NCBI GenBank assembly: GCA_905233765.1
Contig: CAJOCU010000005.1
Location: 31,811-95,810, forward strand
DNA: 64,000 nt
Direction: 5' to 3'
Source of the DNA: an uncultured Bacteroidaceae bacterium
GTDB lineage: Bacteria; Bacteroidota; Bacteroidia; Bacteroidales; Bacteroidaceae
In this document: positions 902-57,085 of the stretch, in pieces
How positions within the stretch are numbered: the first letter of the stretch is position 1
Layout of the letters: each line of letters begins with the position of its first letter
Notes under the pieces: generated by a model
Told to the model about the DNA's origin: nothing
Seen by the model: the letters and a program-made list of their open reading frames with translations, nothing else
Databases searched by the model: none
Translations under genes and position numbers: made by a program

Positions 902-2224
902 ATGGAACCGTTGCACCAACATATTGCTTTCCTGTGTGGACATTTTAAGGTCTCTGGGGCCCCTTCTTCGAAGGCGTTGCAGGGTCTGGGATGGGAGAGG
1001 TTCAATCTCCCGGAGAACGTGAGAAGGATAGAGAAAAGGTTTTTCTATCCAGAATACGTGGATTTCTGCTATGCTGATGCCTCGGGCAAGAGTTGCACCA
1101 GGTATGTGAAGCATGTTGACGAGGAGTTGGAGATCAGCGTAAAGGAGAAGGTCATCCGTTTTGGTGTGAAGGAGATCACGCTCTATCTGATGCCATTTAG
1201 GATGGCGATGTTCTCGATTCATATTGAGCAGACGACGAACGACTTGGACGACTGTACGGCGTTGCTTTTCAGCCTTCGCTCCATTGACTATTACACGGAA
1301 GCGCACGGTGCGTTTGTGGAGAAGGCGATACGACCATTCATGGACGTGTTCGAAGTCCTGACGGGTGCGAAGGCGATGAGCTACTCGGAGCTGATAGACA
1401 ATGGTAACAAGTTGCGTATCTTTCAGATTGTCAATACGATGGATGCGGACATGGCGGCATGGACAGAGGCAGATAAGGACAAGGTGCTGTATGAGTTGGC
1501 GACAGTGTCGAAGATCACGAGGCCTGGGGAGGTGGATGACTACAGCGCTTCGGCGGCATATCTGGAGAAGATCATAGAGCGCAGTAAGATCTCGGTGTTC
1601 CGTAACTGGAGTGGTCTGGCGTTAATGGACACGTTTACGATTCATGCTTTTGGTGTGTCTGTGAGGTTTGTCAATAACTGGGTTGACAGTTACTTCAGGA
1701 TGATTTATATCCATAGTATTTTCCAGAAGAGTTATCTGTTCAACCTGAATATACGTTTCCGGAACTCTTTGGCTCGCTCGTCGGCTTCGTGGAAGTCGAA
1801 GCTTCGAAACCTGCATATACAAGGAACGAACGTTGGTCAGTTGGTGGAGGAGTATGAATCGTTTGAGCAGAAGTGCTGTTTTCACAAGATTTCCTATAAT
1901 TTCCTGCCGCTGGAAATTGCCGCCAGCATTGACAAGGGGCTGGAGATTCAGGAGGAGATGGCGCAGCTATACAAGATGATGGAGAAAGAGAAGACCCGCC
2001 GCGACGAGGCTAACGACAAGATGGTGAACACGCTGCTGTTCAGTCTCTCGTTGCTGACGCTCTTCTCGGCCATTTGGGATATCAGTTGTCTGTTGGACCA
2101 GATGTATCCTTTTGCCGAGTATTTGGGCGGTCAGCCGTTGGGCTATCGGACCGTTGCATTGTTGTTGTTGTTGGGCGTCAGTGTCCTGCTGCTGGTTATC
2201 TATCGGAGGAAGCGGGTGGAGTGA
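902..2224 (+). CDS. hypothetical membrane protein with a soluble N-domain, a helical stalk and two C-terminal TM helices (CorA-like topology, no GMN motif)
   Basis: Taken from ORF 776..2224, with the start moved to MEPLHQH at 902 because the promoter box lies inside the longer ORF. The C-terminus reads NTLLFSLSLLTLFSAIWDISCLL, loop, TVALLLLLGVSVLLLVIYRRKR. It converges on the NRPS 3-prime end and overlaps it by 29 nt. Confidence 0.6.
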   Translation: MEPLHQHIAFLCGHFKVSGAPSSKALQGLGWERFNLPENVRRIEKRFFYPEYVDFCYADASGKSCTRYVKHVDEELEISVKEKVIRFGVKEITLYLMPFRMAMFSIHIEQTTNDLDDCTALLFSLRSIDYYTEAHGAFVEKAIRPFMDVFEVLTGAKAMSYSELIDNGNKLRIFQIVNTMDADMAAWTEADKDKVLYELATVSKITRPGEVDDYSASAAYLEKIIERSKISVFRNWSGLALMDTFTIHAFGVSVRFVNNWVDSYFRMIYIHSIFQKSYLFNLNIRFRNSLARSSASWKSKLRNLHIQGTNVGQLVEEYESFEQKCCFHKISYNFLPLEIAASIDKGLEIQEEMAQLYKMMEKEKTRRDEANDKMVNTLLFSLSLLTLFSAIWDISCLLDQMYPFAEYLGGQPLGYRTVALLLLLGVSVLLLVIYRRKRVE

Positions 2225-5200
2225 AGAAGTCGAAGCCGACGATGGTATCTACGAAGCGGTGGACGTAGTCGGCAGCGGTGGTGGGCCACTGGAAGCCGAG
2301 GCGATAGAGCACCTGCGTAGTGTATTCGTTGTCGGCCTCTATCCAACGCGTCTTATGACCAATGCCCATGTCGTAGGCCATCAGCGGACGTAACAGGGTG
2401 ACGAGGTCGGGATTCTCCATCATCTTCTCTAATGCCTGTTGATATTCCTCGTTCTCTACACGCTTTAGCGTAATGCCTGCCTCGGAAAAGCCTGTGAGGA
2501 TATCGCTGAGGAACTGGCGATGGGTGTTCGAGGGATGGAACACCATGCACTCTTTCGGTGTCTGTGCCAACAGCATAATGGCGTGGGCCACCTCGTCGAT
2601 GGGGGAGAACTCGAAACGCTGGTCGAGGGCTTCGTAGGGCACCATACCTATCACGACATAGGCACGCAACTTGGCCAGGAAGTTGTTGGTGTTGAAGTTG
2701 ATTTGGAACTCACCATCCTTCTGACGTGCCGACAGGTTGCCCACACGCATGATTTTGGCATTCAACCCATGGTTAGCAATGGCGTCAAGCACCAACTCCT
2801 CGGCCTTGTACTTCGAATAGACGTACTTGTTGGCATCGATATTCTGCCCGATATCAAGCAGTTGTTCTGTCAACTTCACCTCAGGCCCTGGCACGTTGTC
2901 GACGCTGATGCCTGCAATGCTGTTCGTGGAGATATGAATCAGGCGTGAACCTGTGCGCAGGCAGAAGGTGATGAGGTGGCGCACCGACTCAATGTTCACC
3001 ATTTCTATGTCGTTGCCCGCAGAGAAATGCTTCACGTTGGCTACGCAGTTGATGACCGTTAAGGCCCCACCCCCGCCCCCTCCCCTGTTAGGGAGGGGAG
3101 CATTGTCTAGGGCATTGGGCTGTGTGACCTCTGCTGCGAAGGCGGTGATGCGCTCGCCAAAATGCTGGAAGGCCTCTGTCTTACCGAAGTAATAGAAGTA
3201 CATCGTCTTCAGACGGCTCGTGGCCTCCTCGTCGCCTTTCGCGCGGATAGGACAGAGGATGTGCCCCTCGTAGTTCGTCAACAGCTCGTTCAAGATATGG
3301 ATCCCGAGATAACCCGTAGCCCCTGTCAGCAGCACATCGCCAATAGGCTGACGTTTTCCATTGTGGAATGAAGAGAGGGTGTTCTTTGTGAGGATGGAAG
3401 GAGCCCCCCCCACGGCCCCCGAGGGGGCTTCTATTGTTGCGTTGTCAGAGGACATTTGTATAGTGTCCCCCTCGGGGGACGACAGGGGGGCTCTCACAAA
3501 TGCAGCCAACGCCTTGGGTGTCTTCAGATTGAACAGGTCGTTGAAGACAATCTGCACGCCGTGTTTGCTGGCTTCCACGATGACCTTGATGGCATTGATG
3601 CTGGTGCCGCCAATCTCGAAGAAGTTGTCCGTGGCGCCTACCTCCTGAATCTTCAGTACGTCGGAGAAGATGGTGCAGAAAAGTTCTTCCATCTCGCCCT
3701 TTGGTGCCTCATACTCGGTGGCACGCTTCATCTCTGGTACAGGCAGTGCCTTGCGGTTGATTTTACCGTTGGGCGTCATCGGCATCACCTCCATCTTCAT
3801 GTAGACATCGGGCACCATATAGTCGGCCAGAGACGAGGCTTTGAGGGCGGTGCAGATGTCTTCGTCTCCGATGGCAGAACCATCGGACACAGTATAGTAA
3901 AGCACCAGGTGCTCGTTGCCCTGCACCTTGCGCACCTCGGCAGCGGCCTGACGGATGCCTTCGATGTTGAGGGCCTTGTTCTCGATTTCGCCCAGCTCGA
4001 TGCGGAAGCCGCGCAGTTTCACCTGGGTGTCGATACGACCGAGGTATTCAAGCTGTCCCTCGTCGTTCCAGCGGCAGAGGTCTCCGGTGTGGTACATCCG
4101 CACGGGACGTCCCCAGCGGTCTTCCTTCACGAACGGACAATCGACGAACGATGTTGCAGTGCGCTCCGGCAGACGCCAATAGCCGCGCCCCACCTGAATA
4201 CCGGCAAAGCATAGTTCACCGGCTACGCCCTGTGGCACGAGATTGCCAGCTGTATCCACGATGAAGTTCCAGTTGTTGGCTACGCTTTGGCCGATAGGAA
4301 TATTCTCCACACGACGGCCAGGAGCGATGGCGTAGTAAGAGGTGTCGTCGGTACACTCCGTAGGACCATAGACATTGATGATCTCGATGTGGTCGCTATA
4401 GACACCGTCCATCTTCTCGCCGCCACCCGTGGTGAAGCGGATAGGCAGGTCGTCGAAGGCATTGAGCAGCAGACTGGTCATCGCGGTGGAATAGCCGCCC
4501 CCCGTACACTGATGGTCGATGAGGAACTGGCGTATCTGTGCAAGGTCCTTGCGAATCTCCGTCGGCATGACATGGAACGAGCCACCCAGCGTCAGCACAG
4601 GATACATATCCTCGATGTGGGCATCGAACGAGAACGAGCGGTGTCCGCTGATGCGGTCGGCAGCCGTCAGTTTCTCCATATCGATGACCACAGCAATGAA
4701 GTTACGCAAGCCGGCTTGATGGAGCATGGCGCCCTTGGGTTTGCCTGTGGAGCCGGAGGTGTAGATCATATAGGCAAGGCCATCGGGAGAAGATAAATCA
4801 AGGGGTGTGTCGGCGGGTAAACCGCCGACCGCACTGGCCATGAAGTCATCAATGAAGAAAGTACGGGCGGCAGCGGTGCTGAAGTCGCCCTCGGCCTGCT
4901 TTGCTTCAAGGACGGCATGAGTGGTAATCAGCACTTTCGACTCCGAATTCTCCAGCATATAACTCAAGCGTTCGTTGGGGTATTCGAAGTCCAGCGGCGT
5001 ATAAGCGGCACCGGCCTTGTGGATTGACAGCACGGCCAACGGGAACTCCTTGAAACGGTCGAGCATGACGCAGACGAAATCATTGGGCTGTACGCCGAAA
5101 TCTATCAGCTGGTGCGCCAATGCATTCGAGTAATTATCCATTTCAGCGTAGGTCAACTGACTGTCCCTATCCACCACAGCGGGGGCATCGGGCGTTCGCT

Positions 5201-8200
5201 TGGCCTGTTCGGTGAAGAGGTTGGCAAAGGTCTTACTAATGTCGATGTCGATTTCCTTTCCCGTACCTATTTTAATAATGCGCTGGGCCTCCTCGTCGCT
5301 GACAATGCTAATACTGGTCAAGGCTGCATCGGGCTTTGCTATCATCCGTTCTACCGTCACCTTCACGGCATCTGCGAGACTCTGCATCAAACGGGCAGAG
5401 TATTTTCCGTTGTCATATTCTACACAGACACATGCCTGACCATTGATGTCGCGGATGAAGAAAGTGATGGGGAACTTGGGTACTTGAAGTTCCAGACCTT
5501 CTATCTCCAAGGGTGTACCCTGACAGACGTATTGGCTGATCATGCCCAATTGATAAACAAGCTGAATCTCAGCCGTCAAACCGTAGTCGGCAGCAATCTG
5601 TGCAAACGGATAGTTCTCGTGGCGAAGGGTCTCGTCGAAGTTTTCGCTGACCTCCTGCAGGAACTCCTTCACACTTTGTTTTCCGATAGTAGCACTCAGA
5701 GCCAGCGTATTGACAAACATGCCCACGGTGTTGCGGATGTGTAGGTTGGAGCGACCGCTTGAGACGGTGGTAATGCAGACCTGCTCGTTGTTGGCAAATC
5801 GCGACAAAGAATAGTAAATGGCCGACAGAATCAAATGGGCCGGCGTGATATGGTTGCCACGACAGAAGGCATCGATAGCCTCGAAATCAAGAGAAGAGAT
5901 GGCTTTGCCGATTGTTCCCTTCGAGGGGTTCGGCAGGTCTGGACGCACCTCCGTAGCGGTTTCTACTACGGACAGCCGTTCTTTAAAGAAATCCTTGGCA
6001 GCCTGATAGTCTGCCCCACCTTCTGCAACTTTTTCGGCTGTCACATAGGCCGCATAATTCTGGTCTTCATCCTCAATGGAATAACCATTGAGCACACTGC
6101 ATAGCTGCTGGAGGAAGATATCAACAGAACCACCATCGAATATCAGGTGGTGCACATCCATCATCAGATAGGTCTGCCGTTCTGTAGTTACTATCTCAAA
6201 ACGATAGAGCGGACCCTTGTTGAGGTCGAAAGGACGTACAAAGTCGTGCTTATATGATGACAACTCCTCCTCGCTCATCTGCTTCACAGGAATCTCCACA
6301 GCCTGCTCCAAATCAACGGTCTGTACGATGCCCTCGTCTCCGTTACCGAAGTGAGCGGTCATCTCAGGATGCACCTTCACAAGCGTCCTGAGGGCCTCTG
6401 CCAATTGGGCAGTATCCGTTTGCTGCGGGAAAGCAATCTTGTTAGGAATGTTATAGAGCGTAGTCTCCGGATTCTTCAAACAGTCGAAATAGACACCTGT
6501 CTGGGCGTAGGACAGGGGGACAGCCTCACCCCCATCCCCTCTCCAGTAGAGGGGCGTAGATAGATTCTGTTCTTGAGAGTGACCACTCCCCTCGCCCTTT
6601 GTGAGGTTTCTCCATATCTCATTTTCAATGCTCTGCAGGGTGCCGCTTTTGACAAGAGACTTTGAATCTAATGTCACGCCATAGCGCTTATTCACCTGAA
6701 TGGCCAATTTAATGGCTGAGATAGAGGTGAGTCCGGCATAGCCCAAAACAGTTGTGATGCCGAAATCCGTGTTTCCAACGATGGCCGCAATCATCTCATG
6801 CAGTTCCTGCTCGAGGACGTTTAAGGGAGCCTGCTCGGTTTGTTGCGATGACATCGCAACAGACTTGACGGGTTTCGGCAGGGCGCGTTTGTTCACCTTC
6901 TGGTTTTGGTTCAATGGAATCTTGTCAATCTGCATCGTCACTGCAGGCACCATGTAGGGCGGTTTCTGATCAAGGATAAAGCTATTTAAAGCTTCGGTGT
7001 CCACCTGTTGGTCGCTGACGATATAGGCCGCAATGAACTTGCCGCCATTCTCGTCATCGAAGGCCTGCACCGTGGCATCCTTGATGCCGGGAAACTCGCG
7101 AATGACAGCTTCCACCTCCTTCAGCTCAATGCGGAAACCGCGAATCTTCACCTGGCCATCCCTGCGGCCGATGAACTGCAGGTTGCCGTCGGGCAGCCAG
7201 CGCACGATGTCGCCAGTCTTATATACCCGAGCATATTTTTCATTGTCTGTAAAGGGATTCTGAATAAACACTTCTGCGTTCTTGTCCGGTCGGTTCAGGT
7301 ATCCGAGTGCCACTTGCGGTCCGGCTACCCACATTTCACCCATAGCCCCCACAGGCAGACGACGTCCCTGTTGATCGACTACATAAAGCCGCACATTGTC
7401 CAAAGGTTTGCCAATGGGGACATCCGTATCTTTCTTTGTGATAGGATAGACAGTGATGATGATGGTGGCCTCCGTAGGACCATAGCCGTTGTGCAACTGA
7501 TAGCCTTGAGGCGGAGCGATACTGGCCAGTTTCTCGCCAGCCACCGAGAGATGCATCAAGGAGTGATTCTCAATGTTCGTTGCAAACTGATAGCCCACCT
7601 GTGTAGTCATGAAGGTATGGGTGATGTGTTCGCGCTCCAGGTATTCGTTGAGCGACACAAGATCCAGGCGCAGTTCCTCAGGGATGATGTGCACGGTGGC
7701 ACCGCGCGTCAGTGGCGGATAGATACCCTCCTGATGGACATCGAAACCATAGCTGGCATATTCAGCCACATTATGCTCTGGCTTTAGGTCGTAATATTTC
7801 CAGTACCAGTTGCAGTAGCATACCAGATTGGCATGTGTCAGTTGGCAACCTTTGGGAATGCCTGTCGAGCCGGAGGTATAAAGGAGGATAAAAAGAGAGT
7901 CGGGTTTCGGTTCCGTAGGCTGCGACAGAGTCGCAGCTAACGAAAGCAGGTCCTTGGTCAGCAGCACTTCGCCCTGATATTCGTCAACGAGGTCACGCAA
8001 CTCCTCGTCGGCAATGAGCAACTTCGCGCCGGCATCTTTCATCATGAAGTTCAGGCGTTCCTTCGGATAGCTGGGATCCAGCGGCTGATAGGCACAGCCA
8101 GCCTTCAGCACGCCGAGTGAGGCAATAGCCATCCACTCGCAGCGAGGAATGATGACAGAAACGGCATCGCCCACGCCCAGTCCTTTGGATACGATATAGC

Positions 8201-9614
8201 CTGCAATGCGGTCGCTGATGTCATCTACCTCGGCATAGGTGTAACGATGGTCCTTGAAAACGACGGCTTCGGCATCTGGTGTGGCCTTGGCCTGCCGGCG
8301 GAACAGCGACACCACCGTCTGGGTGTCATCATAGGGACGGTCTGTATCGTTGAACGAGTCGAGAAGCTCCACCTGCGAAGCTGTGGTAATATTGATGTCG
8401 CTCAGTTTTTCTTCACTGAGGAACCCCGCTACCACCGCCTCATAGCTTTCCATCAACTGGGTGATAAGCAACTCGCTATACATATTGGCGCTGTATTCTG
8501 CCTCCACACAATAATGGCCGTCCTTCGTGTATGCCTTCAGATAGAGCGGCATCTCGCGGGTGTTGTTGTTCAGACGTCGGGCTGTCATCGGCTTGCCGCA
8601 TAGTTCCAGACTATCGAACAGGGGTCCGTGCCAGACAAAGAGTGTGGCAGCCTGCAGTCCCAAGTCTGCGGCTACGTCAGCGTATGCGTAGGCCTCGTGC
8701 TGGCGCTGCCCCATCATTTGCCGCTCCCCAGCCCTCAGGAAGTCGAGCACGGTGGTGTCGTTGTCAAACTTCGTATAGACGGGCAATGTTCTTACCAACA
8801 TGGCTACCGAGTGGGCCAGACGCTTATCGGCTCGCCCATTGTGTATCGTGTTGAACAGCACCTGCTGCTCGTTGTTGTATTTCGCCAGCAGAAAGCTGTA
8901 GGCTGCCGTGAAGAAAGTGCTCTTAAAGATGTCGTGCTCCTTGCAATAGGCTTCGACAGCATCGATGGCTACATTCATCGTCCGCGTCAGCAGACCCTCT
9001 TGAGGCTCTTCTCCGTCCAAATCGGGCAGCAACGGTGAATAGCAGTCGCCGCAATCGAAGTTTTCTGCATACCATTTTTTGTCCTCCTCAAAGGCCGGAC
9101 TCTCGCGCTGCGCAGCCTCAGCCTGGGCTACCTCGGCCAAAGTCAATGCCTCGGCCTCTAACGTTTCGCCACGATAGGCTTTCTCGATGTCGGCCAGCAG
9201 CACCTTTCTCGATGTGCCGTCGCTGATGATATGGTGGATGTCCTGCAGCAGATAATAGTGCGCAGCATCCTTTAGCAGACGGATTCGGAACAAACGGTCA
9301 TGATACAGGTCGAAGGGCTTGACGAAACTGTCGATGGTCATCTGTGGGTTGTCAACGGTCTCGACCTCGAGACTGAATGTCTCGCTATCGCAGATGGTTT
9401 GCACGGCATCGCCCTGCTCGTTCAACTCGATGCGCGTAAACAGCGTCGGGTGGGCCTTCACGGCAGCCTCGATGGCCGCCGTCAGTTTTTCCTCGTCCAA
9501 ACTGGCGTCTAAGATGTAAACATAGGGTATGTTATAACAAGCCTCTCCCTGGTGGTTGACACATTCCACGTAGAGACCATACTGCGTTTTAGTTAATGGC
9601 GCGGAAATCTTCAT
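2196..9614 (-). CDS. bimodular non-ribosomal peptide synthetase, domain order C-A-T-C-A-T-R (terminal thioester reductase)
   Basis: 2472 aa ORF. C1 motif HHIISDG is at about 9216-9236. A1 core LLYTSGSTGIPKG is at about 7858-7896, and A1 also has NGYGPTE and KVNKRALP. T1 reads LGYAGLTSISAIKL at about 6720. C2 motif HHLIFDGGS is at about 6131-6157. A2 core MIYTSGSTGKPKG is at about 4741-4775, and A2 also has NVYGPTE and NGKINRKALP. T2 reads FFEIGGTSINAIKV at about 3600. The R domain has LLTGATGYLGIHIL at about 3301-3340 and YSKYKAEE. No TE domain is present. Confidence 0.95.
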   Translation of the reverse strand: MKISAPLTKTQYGLYVECVNHQGEACYNIPYVYILDASLDEEKLTAAIEAAVKAHPTLFTRIELNEQGDAVQTICDSETFSLEVETVDNPQMTIDSFVKPFDLYHDRLFRIRLLKDAAHYYLLQDIHHIISDGTSRKVLLADIEKAYRGETLEAEALTLAEVAQAEAAQRESPAFEEDKKWYAENFDCGDCYSPLLPDLDGEEPQEGLLTRTMNVAIDAVEAYCKEHDIFKSTFFTAAYSFLLAKYNNEQQVLFNTIHNGRADKRLAHSVAMLVRTLPVYTKFDNDTTVLDFLRAGERQMMGQRQHEAYAYADVAADLGLQAATLFVWHGPLFDSLELCGKPMTARRLNNNTREMPLYLKAYTKDGHYCVEAEYSANMYSELLITQLMESYEAVVAGFLSEEKLSDINITTASQVELLDSFNDTDRPYDDTQTVVSLFRRQAKATPDAEAVVFKDHRYTYAEVDDISDRIAGYIVSKGLGVGDAVSVIIPRCEWMAIASLGVLKAGCAYQPLDPSYPKERLNFMMKDAGAKLLIADEELRDLVDEYQGEVLLTKDLLSLAATLSQPTEPKPDSLFILLYTSGSTGIPKGCQLTHANLVCYCNWYWKYYDLKPEHNVAEYASYGFDVHQEGIYPPLTRGATVHIIPEELRLDLVSLNEYLEREHITHTFMTTQVGYQFATNIENHSLMHLSVAGEKLASIAPPQGYQLHNGYGPTEATIIITVYPITKKDTDVPIGKPLDNVRLYVVDQQGRRLPVGAMGEMWVAGPQVALGYLNRPDKNAEVFIQNPFTDNEKYARVYKTGDIVRWLPDGNLQFIGRRDGQVKIRGFRIELKEVEAVIREFPGIKDATVQAFDDENGGKFIAAYIVSDQQVDTEALNSFILDQKPPYMVPAVTMQIDKIPLNQNQKVNKRALPKPVKSVAMSSQQTEQAPLNVLEQELHEMIAAIVGNTDFGITTVLGYAGLTSISAIKLAIQVNKRYGVTLDSKSLVKSGTLQSIENEIWRNLTKGEGSGHSQEQNLSTPLYWRGDGGEAVPLSYAQTGVYFDCLKNPETTLYNIPNKIAFPQQTDTAQLAEALRTLVKVHPEMTAHFGNGDEGIVQTVDLEQAVEIPVKQMSEEELSSYKHDFVRPFDLNKGPLYRFEIVTTERQTYLMMDVHHLIFDGGSVDIFLQQLCSVLNGYSIEDEDQNYAAYVTAEKVAEGGADYQAAKDFFKERLSVVETATEVRPDLPNPSKGTIGKAISSLDFEAIDAFCRGNHITPAHLILSAIYYSLSRFANNEQVCITTVSSGRSNLHIRNTVGMFVNTLALSATIGKQSVKEFLQEVSENFDETLRHENYPFAQIAADYGLTAEIQLVYQLGMISQYVCQGTPLEIEGLELQVPKFPITFFIRDINGQACVCVEYDNGKYSARLMQSLADAVKVTVERMIAKPDAALTSISIVSDEEAQRIIKIGTGKEIDIDISKTFANLFTEQAKRTPDAPAVVDRDSQLTYAEMDNYSNALAHQLIDFGVQPNDFVCVMLDRFKEFPLAVLSIHKAGAAYTPLDFEYPNERLSYMLENSESKVLITTHAVLEAKQAEGDFSTAAARTFFIDDFMASAVGGLPADTPLDLSSPDGLAYMIYTSGSTGKPKGAMLHQAGLRNFIAVVIDMEKLTAADRISGHRSFSFDAHIEDMYPVLTLGGSFHVMPTEIRKDLAQIRQFLIDHQCTGGGYSTAMTSLLLNAFDDLPIRFTTGGGEKMDGVYSDHIEIINVYGPTECTDDTSYYAIAPGRRVENIPIGQSVANNWNFIVDTAGNLVPQGVAGELCFAGIQVGRGYWRLPERTATSFVDCPFVKEDRWGRPVRMYHTGDLCRWNDEGQLEYLGRIDTQVKLRGFRIELGEIENKALNIEGIRQAAAEVRKVQGNEHLVLYYTVSDGSAIGDEDICTALKASSLADYMVPDVYMKMEVMPMTPNGKINRKALPVPEMKRATEYEAPKGEMEELFCTIFSDVLKIQEVGATDNFFEIGGTSINAIKVIVEASKHGVQIVFNDLFNLKTPKALAAFVRAPLSSPEGDTIQMSSDNATIEAPSGAVGGAPSILTKNTLSSFHNGKRQPIGDVLLTGATGYLGIHILNELLTNYEGHILCPIRAKGDEEATSRLKTMYFYYFGKTEAFQHFGERITAFAAEVTQPNALDNAPLPNRGGGGGGALTVINCVANVKHFSAGNDIEMVNIESVRHLITFCLRTGSRLIHISTNSIAGISVDNVPGPEVKLTEQLLDIGQNIDANKYVYSKYKAEELVLDAIANHGLNAKIMRVGNLSARQKDGEFQINFNTNNFLAKLRAYVVIGMVPYEALDQRFEFSPIDEVAHAIMLLAQTPKECMVFHPSNTHRQFLSDILTGFSEAGITLKRVENEEYQQALEKMMENPDLVTLLRPLMAYDMGIGHKTRWIEADNEYTTQVLYRLGFQWPTTAADYVHRFVDTIVGFDFFTPPASSDR
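3063..3101. repeat. GC-rich palindromic unit, in-frame inside the NRPS reductase domain (encodes PLPNRGGGGGGA)
   Basis: ggccccacccccgccccctcccctgttagggaggggagc. A C-rich arm, a GTTA loop and a G-rich arm. It aligns with the units at 50622, 43471(rc), 6519 and 43400. Confidence 0.7.
3401..3493. repeat. 93 bp MITE-like composite with ~28 bp terminal inverted repeats, in-frame in the NRPS T2-R linker
   Basis: The left end is gagccccccccacggcccccgagggggc. The reverse complement of the right end is gagcccccctgtcgtcccccgagggggac, about 24 of 28 identical. The core is a 36 bp AT-richer stretch. 93 nt equals 31 codons (APLSSPEGDTIQMSSDNATIEAPSGAVGGAPS). Confidence 0.7.
6511..6606. repeat. GC-rich repeat unit(s), in-frame in the NRPS T1-C2 linker
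   Basis: 6519 gacagcctcacccccatcccctctccagtagaggggcg aligns with the family. A second partial C-rich unit, ccactcccctcgccctttgtgagg, is at 6583-6606. Together they encode LTKGEGSGHSQEQNLSTPLYWRGDGGEA. Confidence 0.55.
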
Positions 9615-13375: not shown

Positions 13376-14557
13376 CTATTTTTTCGAGTTCTCTGCTACG
13401 TGACTTCGCCTTTTACGCCACCACTGGAAACTCATGTAAGCGCGATCCATAAGGATTAACAGCGCGAGTGGACCGATGTACCATAGCAGCAGTGTGAGCA
13501 GTATGCGACGGTAGGTTTCTACGCGCGGATGGGCGATCTCAAGTTTCTCCAGAGAGCGCGTTAATTGATTCTCCTTCGGCAGGGTGCGATGGCTCCATTT
13601 GCCTAGGATGGTGCCATCGTGCAGGAGTATCAAGCCAGGATTACTGCGCGCCATGGTCTTCAGAGTGAGCTCGTCGGTGAATGCGAAGGGGTACTCGGCT
13701 CCTGTCATGTCCTGCCAGCGATGGATGACGCTGTCGCTGGAGGCGGTTAGGCACAGGAAACGGTAGCCGTAACGTTGTGCATAGTCGCATAGCGCGTTGA
13801 TGCTTTCGAGGTTGCTGTCATCGGCCTGTTCTAAGTGCGGTGCAATCAGCAGGAACGTGTAGGATGGGTCGGCGAGGATGGCCTCGGTAGTATTGTCGGC
13901 ATTGCCATCGAGAGGCTGCACCTCGAAGTCCAGAATCTCGGGTAATGCCTCTGGATCCTCGGGCCATTGCATCGCAGTCGGGATATGCTGCATGACATGG
14001 AATGGACGGAAGTCGATGATAGGCTCGCCGTAGAGGCATAAGCTCGTCAGGAACAGCGCATAAAGCACCGTGAACAACGACACTAACCACTGCAGCGACT
14101 GTGAGACAAGACGGGAGAGGCATTTGCGCTTCCACCACAGCAATGCCAACAACCCCAGCAGCACGATATTCTTGGCGAAGGTCTGCCAGTTGCTCAGATG
14201 CAGAGCGTCGCCGAAGCAGCCGCAGTCGGTGACGGCATTGGTGACAGCGAGCCACAGCGTCAGGGGCGTGTAGATAGCTGTCAGCAGTGACATGAGCACG
14301 ATGGTGGAACGCCTGCGGATGGCGCAGAAGAGCAGGATACCAAGCGTGAACTCCGTCACTCCCAAGGCGATGGCTGTGAACAATGGAATGTAATCGCCCG
14401 AGAAGAAGCCAGAGAGTTTCAGCGCCTCAAGATAATCGTGAATCTTGTACGCCGTACCGCTGGGGTCAATGAGCTTGACCAGCCCGGAAAAAACAAAAGT
14501 GGCGGACACCACCAACCGGCATGTGTTCACCACTGTCCATTGTAGCTTGCTATTCAT
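13376..14557 (-). CDS. DoxX/MauE-like membrane protein with a C-terminal thioredoxin-like soluble domain
   Basis: 393 aa. The N-terminal four-TM region includes a CGCFGD motif. The start overlaps the upstream gene stop (ATGA). Confidence 0.6.
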   Translation of the reverse strand: MNSKLQWTVVNTCRLVVSATFVFSGLVKLIDPSGTAYKIHDYLEALKLSGFFSGDYIPLFTAIALGVTEFTLGILLFCAIRRRSTIVLMSLLTAIYTPLTLWLAVTNAVTDCGCFGDALHLSNWQTFAKNIVLLGLLALLWWKRKCLSRLVSQSLQWLVSLFTVLYALFLTSLCLYGEPIIDFRPFHVMQHIPTAMQWPEDPEALPEILDFEVQPLDGNADNTTEAILADPSYTFLLIAPHLEQADDSNLESINALCDYAQRYGYRFLCLTASSDSVIHRWQDMTGAEYPFAFTDELTLKTMARSNPGLILLHDGTILGKWSHRTLPKENQLTRSLEKLEIAHPRVETYRRILLTLLLWYIGPLALLILMDRAYMSFQWWRKRRSHVAENSKK

Positions 14558-16651: not shown

Positions 16652-16762
16652 GTGAAAATCTTTGTAACGCACGATAATTATTAACGTTTTTTTAAGTTTT
16701 GAGTGTAAAAAACGCACCAAATGATATGTCTGCGCCTCAAATCTAAGCCTTTTGTCTCATTT

Positions 16763-17980
16763 TTATGGGATTAGCAGCGAGCTGTCGCCGTAGCTTAAAA
16801 AACGGAAATCGTGATCTAATGCATAGCGGTAAATGTCTTTCCAGTGATCATCGCCTACGAAGGCTGATACGAGCAGCAGTAGTGTGGATTGGGGCTGGTG
16901 GAAATTTGTAACTATTCTGCGAACGATATGGTAATCATATCCTGGGGCAATGATGATTTTTGTGGCCGTGTGCAGTGCGTCCAAATGGTTGCGGTTCAAC
17001 CAGTCAAGAATTGCGGCCAGGCATTTCTCGCTTTCCACTCCATCATTTTTTGCATCTTCATAAGGCTCCCACTGATTCACCTTCAAATCTTCTTCGGCGG
17101 CGTTAGGATTCTGAAGAAGCTTTTTGCCGATATAATACAGCGACTCAAGCGTACGAACGCTGGTTGTTCCTACGGCCGTACATTCGCATCCGTGACGCAG
17201 AAGTGCTTCTATAACCTTTCGATGAACATAGATCCATTCGGAATGCATCTCATGACCTTCAATGCGTTCGCTTTTTACAGGCTTGAAGGTGCCCGCTCCT
17301 ACGTGGAGTGTCAACTCTACCCGCTCAATGCCACGTTGGTCAATGGCTTCTAGCACGCGAGGTGTAAAATGAAGTCCTGCGGTGGGCGCGGCCACGCTGC
17401 CTTTTACTTTGGAATAGACTGTTTGATAGGTGGTTAGGTCACTGGTTTCGGTCTGACGATTCAAGTATGGCGGAATTGGAAGCTCGCCACAGTTTTCCAA
17501 TACCTGTGCCCAAGTCAGTTCCGCGTCGTTCCACGTAAAGCGGATTAAATCTGAAGACCCTACTCTTTCGGCTGTAAGACAATGGTCTTTCCCCTCGAAG
17601 ACCACGGTGTTCCTGAGCACTCCTTTCTTCCATTTTTTTGCATTGCCCACGAGGCAGTGCCATGTGCAGCACTGCGTCTGCTGAAACATCAGCGCATAGT
17701 CGTTAGGCTCTGCAGGCTCTAGACAGAATACCTCGATGAGCGCCCCTGTCTCTTTGTGGAAGCGAAGGCGTGCCTGGATAACGCGGGTGTTGTTCATCAC
17801 CAGCAACGATCCCTTAGGCAGCAGCTCTGGCAGATTTTGGAAATGATAATGACTGATATCGCCGTGGTTGTATACCAGCAGCTTCGATGCGTCGCGCTCA
17901 GCCAAAGGATATTTGGCAATGCGTTCGTCTGGCAGCTCGTATGCAAAGTCGGCGATTTGTATGTTTTTGGGGTCGTTCAA
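16763..17980 (-). CDS. queA: tRNA preQ1(34) S-adenosylmethionine ribosyltransferase-isomerase
   Basis: Contains IADFAYELPDERIAKYPLAERDASKLLV, TAGLHFT and FRFLSYGDSSLL. The start is uncertain because the ORF track start is a TTG. Confidence 0.85.
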   Translation of the reverse strand: MNDPKNIQIADFAYELPDERIAKYPLAERDASKLLVYNHGDISHYHFQNLPELLPKGSLLVMNNTRVIQARLRFHKETGALIEVFCLEPAEPNDYALMFQQTQCCTWHCLVGNAKKWKKGVLRNTVVFEGKDHCLTAERVGSSDLIRFTWNDAELTWAQVLENCGELPIPPYLNRQTETSDLTTYQTVYSKVKGSVAAPTAGLHFTPRVLEAIDQRGIERVELTLHVGAGTFKPVKSERIEGHEMHSEWIYVHRKVIEALLRHGCECTAVGTTSVRTLESLYYIGKKLLQNPNAAEEDLKVNQWEPYEDAKNDGVESEKCLAAILDWLNRNHLDALHTATKIIIAPGYDYHIVRRIVTNFHQPQSTLLLLVSAFVGDDHWKDIYRYALDHDFRFLSYGDSSLLIP

Positions 17981-43248: not shown

Positions 43249-43719
43249 TCAGTTGCCGGCCAGCAAATCATAGCGTATCTCATCGCAGAGCATGGAGCAG
43301 CCAGGGGAGGGGGCCGGTTCGGCCTGTGCGGTTTGTAGTTGCGATGTGGGGACTGGAACTCGGACGATGCGGGTCTCGTAAATGGTGTCGTGGATGACTG
43401 AAGACCCACCCTCCTGTCCCTCCCGTGAAGGGAGGGATGTCTCGCTACGCTCAATAGCTGCGCGCAGCATCTCCCCTCCATCACGGGAGGGGTCGGAGGT
43501 GGGGCTTCCTATTCCCTTTCCCACAAAGAATCCTACCACCAGTGCAGCTGCGACAGCGCCCCACCATAGCGGAGTGGGAAAAGACCCTCTCCCCGCTCCC
43601 CCGTGAGGGGGGAGAACCTTGCTTCGCTCGAAGGGGCTGGGCGCCACGTTGAGTTGTTCGTTTTGCTCGTCGCGAAGGTCGCGGGCGGCGGAGATGATAT
43701 CAGAATCTTGAAGCTTCAT
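43249..43719 (-). CDS. single-pass membrane protein downstream of an ECF sigma factor (anti-sigma-like), about one quarter of it made of repeat units
   Basis: 156 aa with the TM segment LWWGAVAAALVVGFFVG. It carries three GC-rich units. Confidence 0.5.
   Translation of the reverse strand: MKLQDSDIISAARDLRDEQNEQLNVAPSPFERSKVLPPHGGAGRGSFPTPLWWGAVAAALVVGFFVGKGIGSPTSDPSRDGGEMLRAAIERSETSLPSREGQEGGSSVIHDTIYETRIVRVPVPTSQLQTAQAEPAPSPGCSMLCDEIRYDLLAGN
43400..43508. repeat. ~109 bp MITE-like composite: two GC-rich units in inverted orientation (~40 bp TIRs) flanking a 31 bp core, in-frame
   Basis: The left end is gaagacccaccctcctgtccctcccgtgaagggagggatg. The reverse complement of the right end is gaagccccacctccgacccctcccgtgatggaggggagatg. 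The two are clearly alignable along their whole length. Confidence 0.7.
43578..43617. repeat. GC-rich palindromic unit, in-frame (encodes VLPPHGGAGRGSF)
   Basis: gaaaagaccctctccccgctcccccgtgaggggggagaac. Nearly identical to the reverse complement of 50687-50720 (cctctccccgctcccccataagggggaggg). Confidence 0.7.
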
Positions 43720-50398: not shown

Positions 50399-52177
50399 TT
50401 AAACCCTTGCGCTTGAGCTTGCTCGCTTCGCTTGCGAAGAACACTTTGAATCTTCTCCGGCCAATACGTGCATCTCACAGCGGCGGCAGTCGAAGCGTAG
50501 GGGGAAGGTGCGGCCGTCGGCCAGGCGCAGGCGCAGGGGCTCGCGGAAGGGGAGGCCCCGCCCGTCGCGCGTGCAGTAACCGAGGGCATGGCGGAGGCAG
50601 TAGCGGCAGGTCATGAGAGGAGACTCACCCCCGGCCCCTTCCGTTAGGGAGGGGGAGAGGCTGGCGCACAGCTCATGAGCGGTAGCGAAACCCTCCCCCT
50701 TATGGGGGAGCGGGGAGAGGATATTCTCTGACACCACCTCTCTCCTCCATTCTCCCAGCACAGAGGCAGGAATGAACCAGTTGTCGGAAAGTTGGATTTC
50801 AATGTCTGCTTCGGTGCAGGTATAGGGTGTGTCGCCGAGGCGCATGAGTTGGCGACGGATATTGTCGGCCTGTGGGGTGCGAGCTAGTTCGTGAGGGTAG
50901 GAGAATGAAGAATGAAGAGTGAAGAATGACGAATGCAGGGTGAGGCGGAAGCCGTCGTCAGTGTCTTCAAGGAGCCAGCGGACGGGGATGCGACGGTCGG
51001 CAGTGGGTCGAGCAAGCTGTCGCTCGAAATCAGCATCGAGATTGCGATAGAGAGGTCCCCCTTTAGGCAATTGCGCAAGGATGGAAGGGTCGGTGGGGAA
51101 GATGCGTCCCTGCTCATCCACGCGGTTCACGCGGAAGCCCTGCAGACGGCCTTCGGCATCGAAGAAGCAGAGGCCGTCGCCATTATGAATAGCGGCCCCA
51201 CCCTCGGTGAGCTTTTCTCCAATGGACTTCGGCGTGGCGAAGTTGGCCATATCGCGTGCGCGACCGTGCAAGAAGTAATCGGTGAAACCGCGGTTAAAGC
51301 TCTTCTGAAGGTCGGGAGTAAAGGTAATGGCTGAGGTGCCGTAGGAGGCGCGGGAATAGTCGTCGGGACGTCGCGCGATGATTTCATCAATACGCTGACG
51401 GTAGTAGGCCGTGGTGTTCTTGACGTAGGCGACATCCTTCAGGCGTCCCTCGATTTTGAAACTGCTGACGCCGGCATCCATCATGGCTTCGAGGTCGGCG
51501 GCGCGGTTCATGTCGCGGAGCGAGAGGAGATGGCGCTGCTTTTCCAAAACCTTCCCATCGGCATCGATGAGGTCGAAGGGGAGGCGGCAGAACTGGGCGC
51601 ATTCTCCGCGGTTGGCGCTGCGTCCGAAGCAGTACTCGCTGGCATAGCAGCGTCCGCTGTAGCTGACGCAGAGGGCACCATGTATGAAGGCTTCAAGGGG
51701 CATCTCGGGCACCGCCTCGTGGATGGCGCGGATATCATCCAGGGAGAGCTCGCGGGCCAGAACGGTCTGTTCGTAGCCAGCCTCGGCACGCGCACGAACA
51801 TCGTCAATCGTGCGGTTGTCCATCTGTGTGGAGCTGTGCAGGGGTAGAGGAGTTGAGAGCTGAGAGTTGAGAGTTGGGAGTTGAGGGTCTTGGACAATCA
51901 ATGCATCCACGCTTATGGCAGCAAGGTCGTTGATGAGGGCTTGGGCCGCTGGGAGCTCCTCATTGTAAAGTAGGGTGTTGACCGTCACATAGATTTTCAC
52001 TCCGTAAGGATGGGCATAATGCACGAGCTCGGCAATGTCCTCTACGCTGTTGCCTGCTGCGGCGCGGGCACCAAAGCGTGGAGCACCAATATAGACAGCA
52101 TCGGCGCCGTGACGAATGGCCTCGATGCCACACTCCAGGTTGCGGGCTGGAGCAAGAAGCTCAATGGATCTCTTCAA
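50399..52177 (-). CDS. peptidase U32 family protein (extended, 592 aa)
   Basis: Contains ELLAPARNLECGIEAIRHGADAVYIGAP, LHSSTQM and CYASEYCFGRSANRGECAQFCR. TTG start in the track. It carries two GC-rich units and two heptamer arrays. Confidence 0.85.
   Translation of the reverse strand: MKRSIELLAPARNLECGIEAIRHGADAVYIGAPRFGARAAAGNSVEDIAELVHYAHPYGVKIYVTVNTLLYNEELPAAQALINDLAAISVDALIVQDPQLPTLNSQLSTPLPLHSSTQMDNRTIDDVRARAEAGYEQTVLARELSLDDIRAIHEAVPEMPLEAFIHGALCVSYSGRCYASEYCFGRSANRGECAQFCRLPFDLIDADGKVLEKQRHLLSLRDMNRAADLEAMMDAGVSSFKIEGRLKDVAYVKNTTAYYRQRIDEIIARRPDDYSRASYGTSAITFTPDLQKSFNRGFTDYFLHGRARDMANFATPKSIGEKLTEGGAAIHNGDGLCFFDAEGRLQGFRVNRVDEQGRIFPTDPSILAQLPKGGPLYRNLDADFERQLARPTADRRIPVRWLLEDTDDGFRLTLHSSFFTLHSSFSYPHELARTPQADNIRRQLMRLGDTPYTCTEADIEIQLSDNWFIPASVLGEWRREVVSENILSPLPHKGEGFATAHELCASLSPSLTEGAGGESPLMTCRYCLRHALGYCTRDGRGLPFREPLRLRLADGRTFPLRFDCRRCEMHVLAGEDSKCSSQAKRASSSARV
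50622..50720. repeat. 99 bp composite of two GC-rich units in opposite orientation flanking a 26 bp core, in-frame in the U32 peptidase
   Basis: 50622 is gactcacccccggccccttccgttagggagggggagagg and 50687 is gaaaccctcccccttatgggggagcggggagagg. Together they encode ENILSPLPHKGEGFATAHELCASLSPSLTEGAGGES. Confidence 0.7.
50891..50946. repeat. tandem heptanucleotide array (8 units, RTGARGA) inside the U32 peptidase gene
   Basis: gtgaggg taggaga atgaaga atgaaga gtgaaga atgacga atgcagg gtgaggc. The coding strand gives TLHSSFFTLHSSFSYP, a 7-aa peptide repeat. Confidence 0.65.
51853..51887. repeat. tandem heptanucleotide array (5 units, YTGAGAG) inside the U32 peptidase gene
   Basis: ttgagag ctgagag ttgagag ttgggag ttgaggg. 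The coding strand gives PQLPTLNSQLST. Confidence 0.6.
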
Positions 52178-55174: not shown

Positions 55175-57085
55175 TTATGTAGTAAAGGCTGCGAGCGCTT
55201 CGGAGGCGGTCATCCATTCTTCTTCAGCGGCTTCGAGCTGTTGCTTAAATCGGGTGTATCTTTCGTAGAGTTGCGTGTCAGTGGCGCCTTCGGGAGTGGC
55301 CAGCTGGTCTTCGAGTAGATGGATGGCGGCTTCCAGTTGTGCCACCTTCTCCTCTGCCTCCTGCACCGCTTTCTCCTGTTTCTTGCGCTGGCGGGCAGCT
55401 GCTTTTTGGGCTTCCCAAGAAGAGGCGGCGGCAGCTTCGGTCTTTCCTGTTTTTGAGCCCTCAAAAACAGGAAAGACCGAAGCCGCTGTCTTATTTAACC
55501 AATCGTATATTCCTCCGAGATGTTCTCTGACCCGTCCGTCGCCGAAAGCATAGACCTTGTCAACGAGGCCGTCGAGGAATTGGCGGTCGTGGCTGACGAC
55601 GATGACCGTGCCGTCGAAGGCCGCGATGGCCTCCTTGAGCACGTCCTTGGATTTCATGTCGAGATGGTTGGTGGGCTCGTCAAGGATGAGGAAATTGACG
55701 GGTTCCAGCAGCAGCTTGATCATAGCCAGACGCGAGCGCTCGCCGCCCGAGAGCACCTTCACCTTCTTGTCCGATGCTTCGCCGCCGAACATGAAGGCGC
55801 CGAGGATGTCGCGGATCTTCGTCCTGATGTCACCTCGTGCCACTCGGTCAATGGTGTCGAAGACGGTGAGCTCTGGGTCGAGCAGCTGTGCCTGGTTCTG
55901 GGCAAAGTAGCCGATCTGTGCGTTGTGTCCCACTTTCAGTGAACCCTCGAAGGGTATCTCGCCGAGGATACATTTCACGAGGGTGGATTTACCCTCGCCA
56001 TTGCGCCCGACAAATGCCACCTTCTCGCCACGTCGGATGGTGAGGTTGACATGGGCGATGACTTCCTTCTCGCCATAGGCCTTGCGCAGGTCTTCCACGA
56101 TGAGGGGGAAGTCGCCGCTGCGCTGGCAGGGCGGGAATTTCAGGTGGAGGGCGCTGTTGTCGATATCATCTACCTCGATGGGCACAATGCGATTCAGCTG
56201 TTTGATGCGTTCTTGTACCTGCACCGCCTTGGTGGGCTTGTAGCGGAAACGCTCGATGAATTCCTTGAGATCGGCAATCTCCTTCTGCTGGTTCTCGTAG
56301 GCCCGCAGCTGCTGTTCGCGGCGTTCGGCGCGCAGCAGGACATACTCGTCGTACTTCACCTTATAATCCCATACGCGCCCGCATGAGATTTCGAGTGTGC
56401 GGTTGGTGACGTTGTTGATGAAGGCCTGGTCGTGCGAGACCAGCACTACGGCACCAGCCCGTTGTTGCAGGTACTGCTCCAGCCACTGAATGCTCTCGAT
56501 GTCGAGGTGGTTCGTGGGCTCGTCGAGCAACAGCACGTCGGGTTGTCGCAGCAGCAACTTGGCCAGCTCAATACGCATTCGCCAGCCGCCGCTGAGCTCT
56601 CGTGTGGGACGGTTGAACTCTGAGCGCTCGAAGCCGAGCCCCATGAGTGTGCGCTCCACTTCGGCGTGGAAGTTGAGGCCGCCCATCATCTGGAAGTGTT
56701 CTTCGGCCCGCGTGTAGCGTTCTACGAGTTCCATGTAGGCTTCGCTTTCGTAGTCAGTGCGCTCGGCCATCTCAGCGCTCAGGCGTTCAATGGTAGCCTG
56801 AAGATCGTGGATATGGTCGAAGGCCAGCAACGCTTCCTCCATCACCGTGCGCTCGTTGGCGAGTTCCATCACCTGTGGCAGGTAGCCGATGGCGGTGTCG
56901 CGCGGCACGGCCACCACGCCCTCAGTGGGCACCTGTTGTCCAGCGATGATCTTCAGCAATGTGCTCTTGCCCGCACCGTTCTTGCCAGTGAGGGCGATGC
57001 GGTCGCGGTCGTTGACCACGAAACTCACGTCTGTGAACAGTGGACGGGCGCTGAATTCTACGGTAAGGTGCTCAACGGAGACCAT
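55175..57085 (-). CDS. ABC-F family ATPase (two ABC domains plus a C-terminal coiled-coil extension)
   Basis: Walker A motifs GKNGAGKST and GRNGEGKST, and signature motifs LSGGWRMR and LSGGERSR. Confidence 0.9.
   Translation of the reverse strand: MVSVEHLTVEFSARPLFTDVSFVVNDRDRIALTGKNGAGKSTLLKIIAGQQVPTEGVVAVPRDTAIGYLPQVMELANERTVMEEALLAFDHIHDLQATIERLSAEMAERTDYESEAYMELVERYTRAEEHFQMMGGLNFHAEVERTLMGLGFERSEFNRPTRELSGGWRMRIELAKLLLRQPDVLLLDEPTNHLDIESIQWLEQYLQQRAGAVVLVSHDQAFINNVTNRTLEISCGRVWDYKVKYDEYVLLRAERREQQLRAYENQQKEIADLKEFIERFRYKPTKAVQVQERIKQLNRIVPIEVDDIDNSALHLKFPPCQRSGDFPLIVEDLRKAYGEKEVIAHVNLTIRRGEKVAFVGRNGEGKSTLVKCILGEIPFEGSLKVGHNAQIGYFAQNQAQLLDPELTVFDTIDRVARGDIRTKIRDILGAFMFGGEASDKKVKVLSGGERSRLAMIKLLLEPVNFLILDEPTNHLDMKSKDVLKEAIAAFDGTVIVVSHDRQFLDGLVDKVYAFGDGRVREHLGGIYDWLNKTAASVFPVFEGSKTGKTEAAAASSWEAQKAAARQRKKQEKAVQEAEEKVAQLEAAIHLLEDQLATPEGATDTQLYERYTRFKQQLEAAEEEWMTASEALAAFTT
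55434..55483. repeat. perfect 24+24 bp palindrome (2 nt centre) inside the ABC-F coding sequence
   Basis: gcttcggtctttcctgtttttgag-cc-ctcaaaaacaggaaagaccgaagc. It encodes AASVFPVFEGSKTGKTEAA. Confidence 0.85.

Follow-up and report, generated by a model that had tools for sequence, protein, structure and literature searches.

Why should a gene for a translation-factor-like protein contain, within its reading frame, a palindrome of 50 nucleotides without a single mismatch, and is such a structure there for a function or for some other reason? This question is raised by positions 55434-55483 of the window, as we call the whole stretch of 64,000 nucleotides analysed here, which belongs to an uncultured Bacteroidales species from gut or rumen. 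The plus strand reads there gcttcggtctttcctgtttttgag-cc-ctcaaaaacaggaaagaccgaagc, a 24+2+24 nt inverted repeat; both direct reading of the sequence and a repeat finder confirm the perfect 24-nt arms described in the initial annotation. As the gene lies on the minus strand, arm 1 (55434..55457) is the 3' arm of the coding strand and encodes SKTGKTEA, while arm 2 (55460..55483) is the 5' arm and encodes ASVFPVFE; the 2-nt spacer (55458..55459) is CC on the plus strand and GG on the coding strand. The repeat finder extends the arms to 27 nt (55431-55457 and 55460-55486, 2 nt between them, 96% complementarity), the single mismatch being G·U in the mRNA and G·T in DNA. On the coding minus strand the extended inverted repeat (55431..55486) is predicted to fold into a 26-pair mRNA hairpin (-49 kcal/mol, z = -7.3), and the predicted DNA hairpin reaches -30.3 kcal/mol (z = -8.5).

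The host gene (55175..57085, minus strand) codes for an ABC-F family ATPase of 636 aa with two ABC_tran domains, an ABC_tran_Xtn and a C-terminal coiled coil. Its class is indicated by NCBIfam model NF000355, which scores 450 bits against a cut-off of 380, and by the Pfam architecture, i.e. two ABC domains joined by ABC_tran_Xtn and no transmembrane domain. The coiled-coil domain (55208..55384, minus strand, residues 568-626) matches PF16326 (ABC_tran_CTD) weakly, and the AlphaFold2 model of the protein, built from 54 orthologues, has helices at residues 550-634. In this model the pLDDT falls below 50 exactly at residues 534-554, between the ABC2 fold and these helices, so that codons 534-554 (55424..55486, minus strand, AASVFPVFEGSKTGKTEAAAA) form a disordered ABC2-CTD linker. 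Since this segment coincides with the peptide encoded by the palindrome, read in frame as AASVFPVFEGSKTGKTEAA, the palindrome in the model encodes essentially the whole disordered linker. Pfam and AlphaFold2 thus agree with the first reading of the site as lying within an ABC-F ATPase, between the second ABC domain and the C-terminal coiled coil. The view that selection at the protein level does not explain the perfection of the arms is also supported.

Assemblers can generate palindromes, and the first explanation to weigh is a foldback chimera made by the assembler. The identical perfect palindrome is found in four further assemblies of the species (L001, L141, L142 and L143, gene position 1603), with flanks 99.5-100% identical to the window and ABC-F genes differing from that of the window by 0-4 nt; all four members of the protein cluster (4/4) carry the same linker peptide. 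The five assemblies come from at least four samples and differ in contig naming and k-mer styles. The palindrome sits deep within long contigs, its flanks are collinear with the orthologues on both sides and the reading frame is intact. Given this agreement between five independent assemblies, and a decayed homologue in another species (L002, described below), we reject the artefact, whose probability seems negligible. Strain-to-strain indels, which would be a sign of the mobility of an element, were looked for and none was found.

This homologue is central to the age of the repeat. Among the best 120 full-length relatives (75-100% identity, the few that bear a source-given name being "MAG: Bacteroidaceae/Bacteroidales bacterium"), protein P0006, from locus L002, has the only other linker resembling that of the window, AASIQPAFEPSKTDKTESA. 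The DNA behind it forms an imperfect palindrome about the same axis, with 16 Watson-Crick pairs out of 27, 2 G·T pairs and 9 mismatches, where the window has 26 Watson-Crick pairs out of 27 and one G·T. The in-register complementarity of L002 (14/24) was matched by 155 of 100,000 arm shuffles (p ~0.0016). Because a gene with 82.7% DNA identity to that of the window outside the linker carries a homologous imperfect palindrome on the same axis, the inverted repeat is old, predating the split of the two lineages, and only its perfection would be recent. The recent foldback insertion put forward in the initial annotation is therefore not supported as stated. An orthologue with the same peptide on imperfect, non-palindromic DNA had been named there as the observation that would speak against such an origin; L002 comes close to it, its DNA being imperfect and its peptide homologous.

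The comparison of the two alleles also bears on the perfection of the window arms. At four-fold degenerate sites the two genes are 56.7% identical only, so that chance cannot have kept 48 arm positions perfectly complementary; from these sequences the perfection would be either recent or actively maintained. Window and L002 differ at 13 of the 27 pair positions, 6 of them by a change on the left arm only, 4 on the right arm only and 3 on both. In two pairs, k=13 (T-A in the window, G-C in L002) and k=19 (G-C and T-A respectively), both sides have changed with complementarity kept, but two compensated pairs are about what is expected by chance. The coding-strand spacer, GG in the window, reads CC in L002; each is exactly the reverse complement of the other, an inversion which, with 2 nt, is weak when taken alone. 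The arms of the two alleles are 70% identical, compared with 57% at the four-fold sites: this could be a mark of constraint, or recombination could have given the linker a younger common ancestor. The databases searched hold two lineages of window-type alleles only and no outgroup that would orient the change; an ancestral perfect palindrome could equally have been kept in the window, with decay in L002 alone.

In coding DNA, the described outcomes of template switching are the homogenisation of the arms and the inversion of the spacer, and it gives runs of adjacent amino-acid changes without selection (PMC8604942, PMC7202029). Three observations made here correspond to this process: a related imperfect repeat on the same axis in L002, clustered multinucleotide differences which raise complementarity (the 13 of 27 pair positions), and the inverted spacer (GG versus CC, 2 nt). 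Template switching fits the locus because it accounts for an old quasi-palindrome, a decayed sister allele, a perfect inner 24 bp that ends at the mismatch of pair 25, and a spacer turned around. We give about an even chance to the proposal that template switching during replication made the arms alike and turned the spacer around, the linker tolerating any sequence; the mechanism, the direction and the neutrality of the hairpin are what we infer here.

The course of events might then have been as follows. The palindrome would be one allele of a hypervariable disordered linker of the ABC-F protein, and an inverted repeat would have been present at the site before the lineages of window and L002 parted. 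One arm (SKTGKTEAA) would be akin to the ordinary linker of the orthologues and the other (AASVFPVFE) would be the same sequence reverse-complemented and read in a different frame. The arms would recently have been made identical in the window lineage, a nascent strand folding back and copying one arm from the other, and a related switch between strands would have inverted the spacer. The protein would tolerate such a change if flexibility and a length of about 20 residues are all that is required of the linker as a spacer. As the differences between window and L002 lie on both arms, one switch from an L002-like ancestor is insufficient and more than one event is implied. Nothing indicates a function for the hairpin itself.

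What the linker tolerates can be judged from the relatives. Between the motifs ..GGIYDW and SWEAQK/SYEEQK, the best 120 full-length relatives have a linker of 25-91 aa, hypervariable in length and in sequence. In L003 and L144 it is a 93-nt GC-rich element (family A, peptide APLSSPVGDT..EAPSGAVGGA), in L004 and L005 an element of family B (PTP[D/N]PSR..GGE..), and in L006 an element of family C (SPPALPCREG..APSLQGRAGGES), whose arms of about 38 nt pair along their whole length in the predicted fold, the linker reaching -97 kcal/mol (z = -10.6). Families A, B and C are true dispersed palindromic families. In the window itself, family A occurs at 3401..3493 (minus strand), in frame in a 2472-aa NRPS-like ORF where it is read as APLSSPEGDT..EAPSGAVGGA, with the same length and reading frame as in the ABC-F linker of L003 and L144. 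Family B occurs there twice, also on the minus strand and in frame, at 43405..43504 in a 156-aa ORF and at 50621..50720 in a U32 peptidase ORF (50399..52177); it is likewise inside the annotated U32 peptidase gene of L004 and L005. Short strings are common to the window linker and the loop of family A (SKT..TEA in the peptide, AAGAC..GAAGC in DNA). They might suggest that the window-type linker descends from this loop, but the similarity is short and of low complexity.

In most of the more distant orthologues, found in gut and rumen metagenomes at 72% identity or below, the linker is plain, LQKKKIESLNELQLS.SPT...KKEE....SENKLSYEAQK, without strong hairpin; a few of them have GC-rich elements. 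The plain linkers contain strings, e.g. SPTKTTKEEAP, which resemble the window arm SKTGKTEAA. Judged from this likeness, it is weakly suggested that the SKTGKTEAA arm is native and the other its inverted copy.

The presence of dispersed elements at the very position of the palindrome calls for another reading, in which the window palindrome is itself a mobile or convertible element of low copy number, a fourth family recently inserted or re-copied in frame. Relatives do fill this position with members of families A (L003, L144), B (L004, L005) and C (L006), the element then making up essentially the entire linker; the cassette of L006 is perfect too, and the type of linker does not follow the gene tree. 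The palindrome is, moreover, an in-frame, hairpin-forming insert in a permissive region of a protein, as would be expected of such an element. Multiple copies, the other mark of a dispersed element, were not found in the 64-kb window, the ~1.3 Mb of loci or the 18-mer scan of 185,579 species. The arms of family A are nearly identical across unrelated genes and species, unlike the window arm. The window palindrome is AT-richer than families A, B and C and has no sequence in common with them, and L002 holds the same cassette with the same boundaries in a decayed state, which does not fit a fresh insertion. We regard this reading as rather unlikely, and template switching within an old repeat as the better account.

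Allowing up to 3 mismatches, the arm has no match in the 64-kb window besides its two known places, and 0 of 100 dinucleotide shuffles matched; blastn-short over the window and 147 loci (~1.3 Mb) gave no palindrome copy, in the version of the window or of L002, beyond those known. An 18-mer of the arm, looked for in one genome each of 185,579 species, had 54 single matches in unrelated taxa, none extending or palindromic. These we set aside as chance matches, all of them being single, without extension past the 18-mer and without palindrome. As the scan missed the locus of the window itself, the present species is effectively unsampled in it. Further copies of the arm, which the initial annotation advised looking for, are thus absent from the window, the 147 loci and the species scan, the remaining genome of the organism lying outside the search; as to an orthologue with an empty site, other cassettes or a longer plain linker were seen and no clean empty site. 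Direct repeats flanking the palindrome were not found either. Three protein searches brought no more window-type linkers. A 153-aa C-terminal query of the protein database returned fragments only, none with a window-type linker, a 65-aa linker query (for which the word index was limiting) returned one irrelevant candidate, and a scan of metagenomes returned orthologues of at most 72% identity, which served as controls with plain linkers, and no new window-type allele.

That linker type departs from the gene tree, which could be taken as a sign of mobility, is explained by homologous recombination, as the stepwise identity of L002 and L003 indicates. Outside the linker these two are 98.0% identical and their linkers are unrelated; for L005 and L006, whose families of element differ, the corresponding identity is 93.8%. 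Along the sequence, L002 and L003 are 99-100% identical upstream, about 96-97% over the several hundred bases that surround the linker and 85-87% farther downstream, and between the window and L144 the identity along the gene ranges from 59% to 97%. By these alignments, homologous recombination shuffles the linker alleles. A breakpoint of L002/L003 placed exactly at the palindrome is unsupported, as the identity drops stepwise over ~1.5 kb.

A 26-bp stem in mRNA is a possible substrate of RNase III or could slow the transit of ribosomes, and a 50-bp palindrome in DNA is exposed to possible attack by hairpin nucleases or to deletion. It may be asked whether the hairpin is functional, its perfection being kept by selection, either as RNA (pausing translation after ABC2 and before the tail, or serving as an RNase III or other processing site) or as DNA (a cruciform or recombination site). 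The stem is predicted to be very stable and is the same in five assemblies; however, with differences of no more than 0.5% among the assemblies, this sameness says little. Many close orthologues have some strong hairpin at this place, of unrelated sequence, and the arms are somewhat more conserved than four-fold sites between window and L002. On the other hand the folding z of the linker runs from -10.6 (L006) and -8.1 (window) through about -3.6 (L003, L144 and L005) and -1.6 (L004) to -0.6 in L146, a decayed family A, 0.0 in L002 and +0.9 in L147, which has a plain linker. L002 and L146 have thus lost the hairpin, L147 and most distant orthologues lack one, and the gene shows no sign of damage. 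This range, from perfect to decayed or absent, argues in the sequences compared against a lasting selection on structure. Since hairpins arise, decay and go missing while the gene stays intact, they would rather be neutral or selfish sequence in a tolerant linker; that GC-rich elements are also in frame in NRPS and U32 peptidase fits the tolerance of linkers better than a function particular to ABC-F.

Selection on the hairpin, one of the possibilities raised at the outset, hence finds no support, and the internal terminator also envisaged is unlikely: the mRNA 3' of the stem, GCCGCCGCCUCUUCUUGGG, has no U-run, and the scan made no terminator-like call. An intrinsic terminator, defined by a GC-rich stem then a U-run, was rejected on these two grounds. 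The scan for terminators and promoters gave nothing relevant at the palindrome, and in the window Rfam gave no match at or above the gathering score, the sub-threshold matches being generic hairpin matches to miRNA models only. Altogether we hold a function of the hairpin to be improbable.

A bolder reading of the same data, which we find equally improbable, is that in this lineage of ABC-F a strong hairpin, whatever its sequence, is actively drawn to the place where ABC2 meets the tail, or is required there. This could happen by repeated capture of palindromic elements through integration targeted to hairpins, the window palindrome being then a new family of low copy number, or by repeated selection of a structured mRNA segment which would pause translation, or gate RNase III processing, between the ATPase and its coiled-coil tail. 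If true, the unrelated hairpin cassettes found at one codon position would be convergent, beyond mere tolerance.

If template switching is the right account, the palindrome shows in nature how mutation driven by a hairpin can rewrite about 20 codons of a conserved translation-factor-like gene, and warns against mistaking such clustered changes for positive selection or a regulatory element. The palindrome itself is modest; the recombining series of cassettes and the in-frame GC-rich families are more interesting. This context is also the more useful: in this clade a single disordered linker holds at least five unrelated hairpin cassettes as alleles, shuffled by recombination, and among these alleles are three dispersed GC-rich families, which an NRPS-like protein, a U32 peptidase and a small ORF likewise contain in frame. 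It offers a tractable system for the birth, tolerance and decay of selfish or mutational hairpins inside proteins.

Several known systems resemble this locus in part. With the intrinsic (Rho-independent) terminators and attenuators it shares a strong stem-loop in the transcript; unlike them it lacks a U-run, its stem is far longer, and it is placed midway in an intact ORF with a conserved domain downstream. The mitochondrial genes of Nematomorpha also contain coding palindromes (PMC6649704), which, like that of the window, are perfect repeats in translated genes with arms encoding different peptides; but they are numerous, reach 284 bp and encode conserved regions with both arms, whereas the window has a single one in a non-conserved linker. 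The likeness to quasipalindrome template switching (PMC8604942, PMC7202029) extends to the imperfect sister repeat, the clustered changes which raise complementarity and the reverse-complement spacer, and also to the several adjacent amino-acid replacements, for which positive selection is unneeded. Some differences stand against it: the window arms are long (24-27 nt) compared with the short inverted repeats of the yeast study, and accounting for all changes between window and L002 takes more than one event, with a direction left unset by the lack of an outgroup allele. For Bacteroidales, no account of palindromic elements lying in frame came up in our literature searches. The Rickettsia palindromic elements (PMC3184786) are longer (~105-146 nt, compared with ~56 nt for the window palindrome), and the latter, unlike them, has no detected second copy in the data searched. 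As in Rickettsia, though, a conserved protein includes, at a permissive place, the in-frame translation of a hairpin-forming sequence, and the same linker holds, in this clade, dispersed palindromic families which are in frame in other genes too.

The GC-rich palindromic elements found in the ABC-F linker of related lineages also occur, in frame, in open reading frames of the window. A GC-rich imperfect palindrome with 34-nt arms lies at 3401-3493, inside the NRPS-like ORF 2196..9614 (minus strand), and its in-frame translation is APLSSPEGDTIQMSSDNATIEAPSGAVGGA. The ABC-F linkers of L003 and L144, two loci of related lineages, consist of the same 93-nt element family (family A), read in an identical frame. 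The host gene is a large one (2472 aa) in a Bacteroidaceae-like genome; judged from its translation only, it would comprise adenylation, carrier and condensation regions and a terminal reductase-like region. Two further stretches of this ORF look suspicious, GEGSGHSQEQNLSTPLYWRGDGGEA and APLPNRGGGGGGA.

A family B element is found at 43405-43504, within a 156-aa ORF (43249..43719, minus strand) without Pfam match, where it reads in frame as SPTSDPSRDGGEMLRAAIERSETSLPSREGQEGG; a second, partial match lies 80 nt from it (43582-43604). The peptide encoded by this element is homologous to the ABC-F linker of the related locus L005 (PTPNPSRNGGE..IERSE..).

Besides the ABC-F linker, a second linker in which GC-rich palindromic elements accumulate is found in the C-terminal part of the U32 peptidase. 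They are present there, in frame, in several lineages: at 50621-50720 in the window (ORF 50399..52177; peptide SPLPHKGEGFATAHELCASLSPSLTEGAGGES), at 16674-16777 and 16973-17098 in L004, and at 14297-14331 and 14521-14636 in L005.

In L006 (10001-11965), the linker of the ABC-F protein P0012 is encoded by a GC-rich palindrome with arms of roughly 38 nt, predicted to pair throughout (-97 kcal/mol, z = -10.6); this coding hairpin is predicted to be stronger still than that of the palindrome in the window's ABC-F gene. Judged by their peptides, the alleles related to the P0012 linker, e.g. that of P0017, appear to change in both arms coordinately. In two other ABC-F orthologues, P0034 and P0052, the same linker is occupied by tandem peptide repeats, not palindromes (PTANNQQPTANSHQPSANSQQ... 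and SSAGRSS... over about 90 aa). Two high-scoring relatives, P0002 and P0003 (826 aa), exceed the others in length by about 190 aa and lack the coiled-coil tail at their C-terminal end; gene fusion or an error in gene calling may account for this.

Comparisons between lineages (L002 versus L003, the window versus L144, L003 versus L144) show strong mosaicism in the ABC-F gene and the genes next to it, identity along a single gene ranging from about 60-70% up to 97-100%. This mosaicism indicates that homologous recombination is frequent at the locus. L003 and L144 share an almost identical family A cassette, whereas identity between their flanks is 84-89%.
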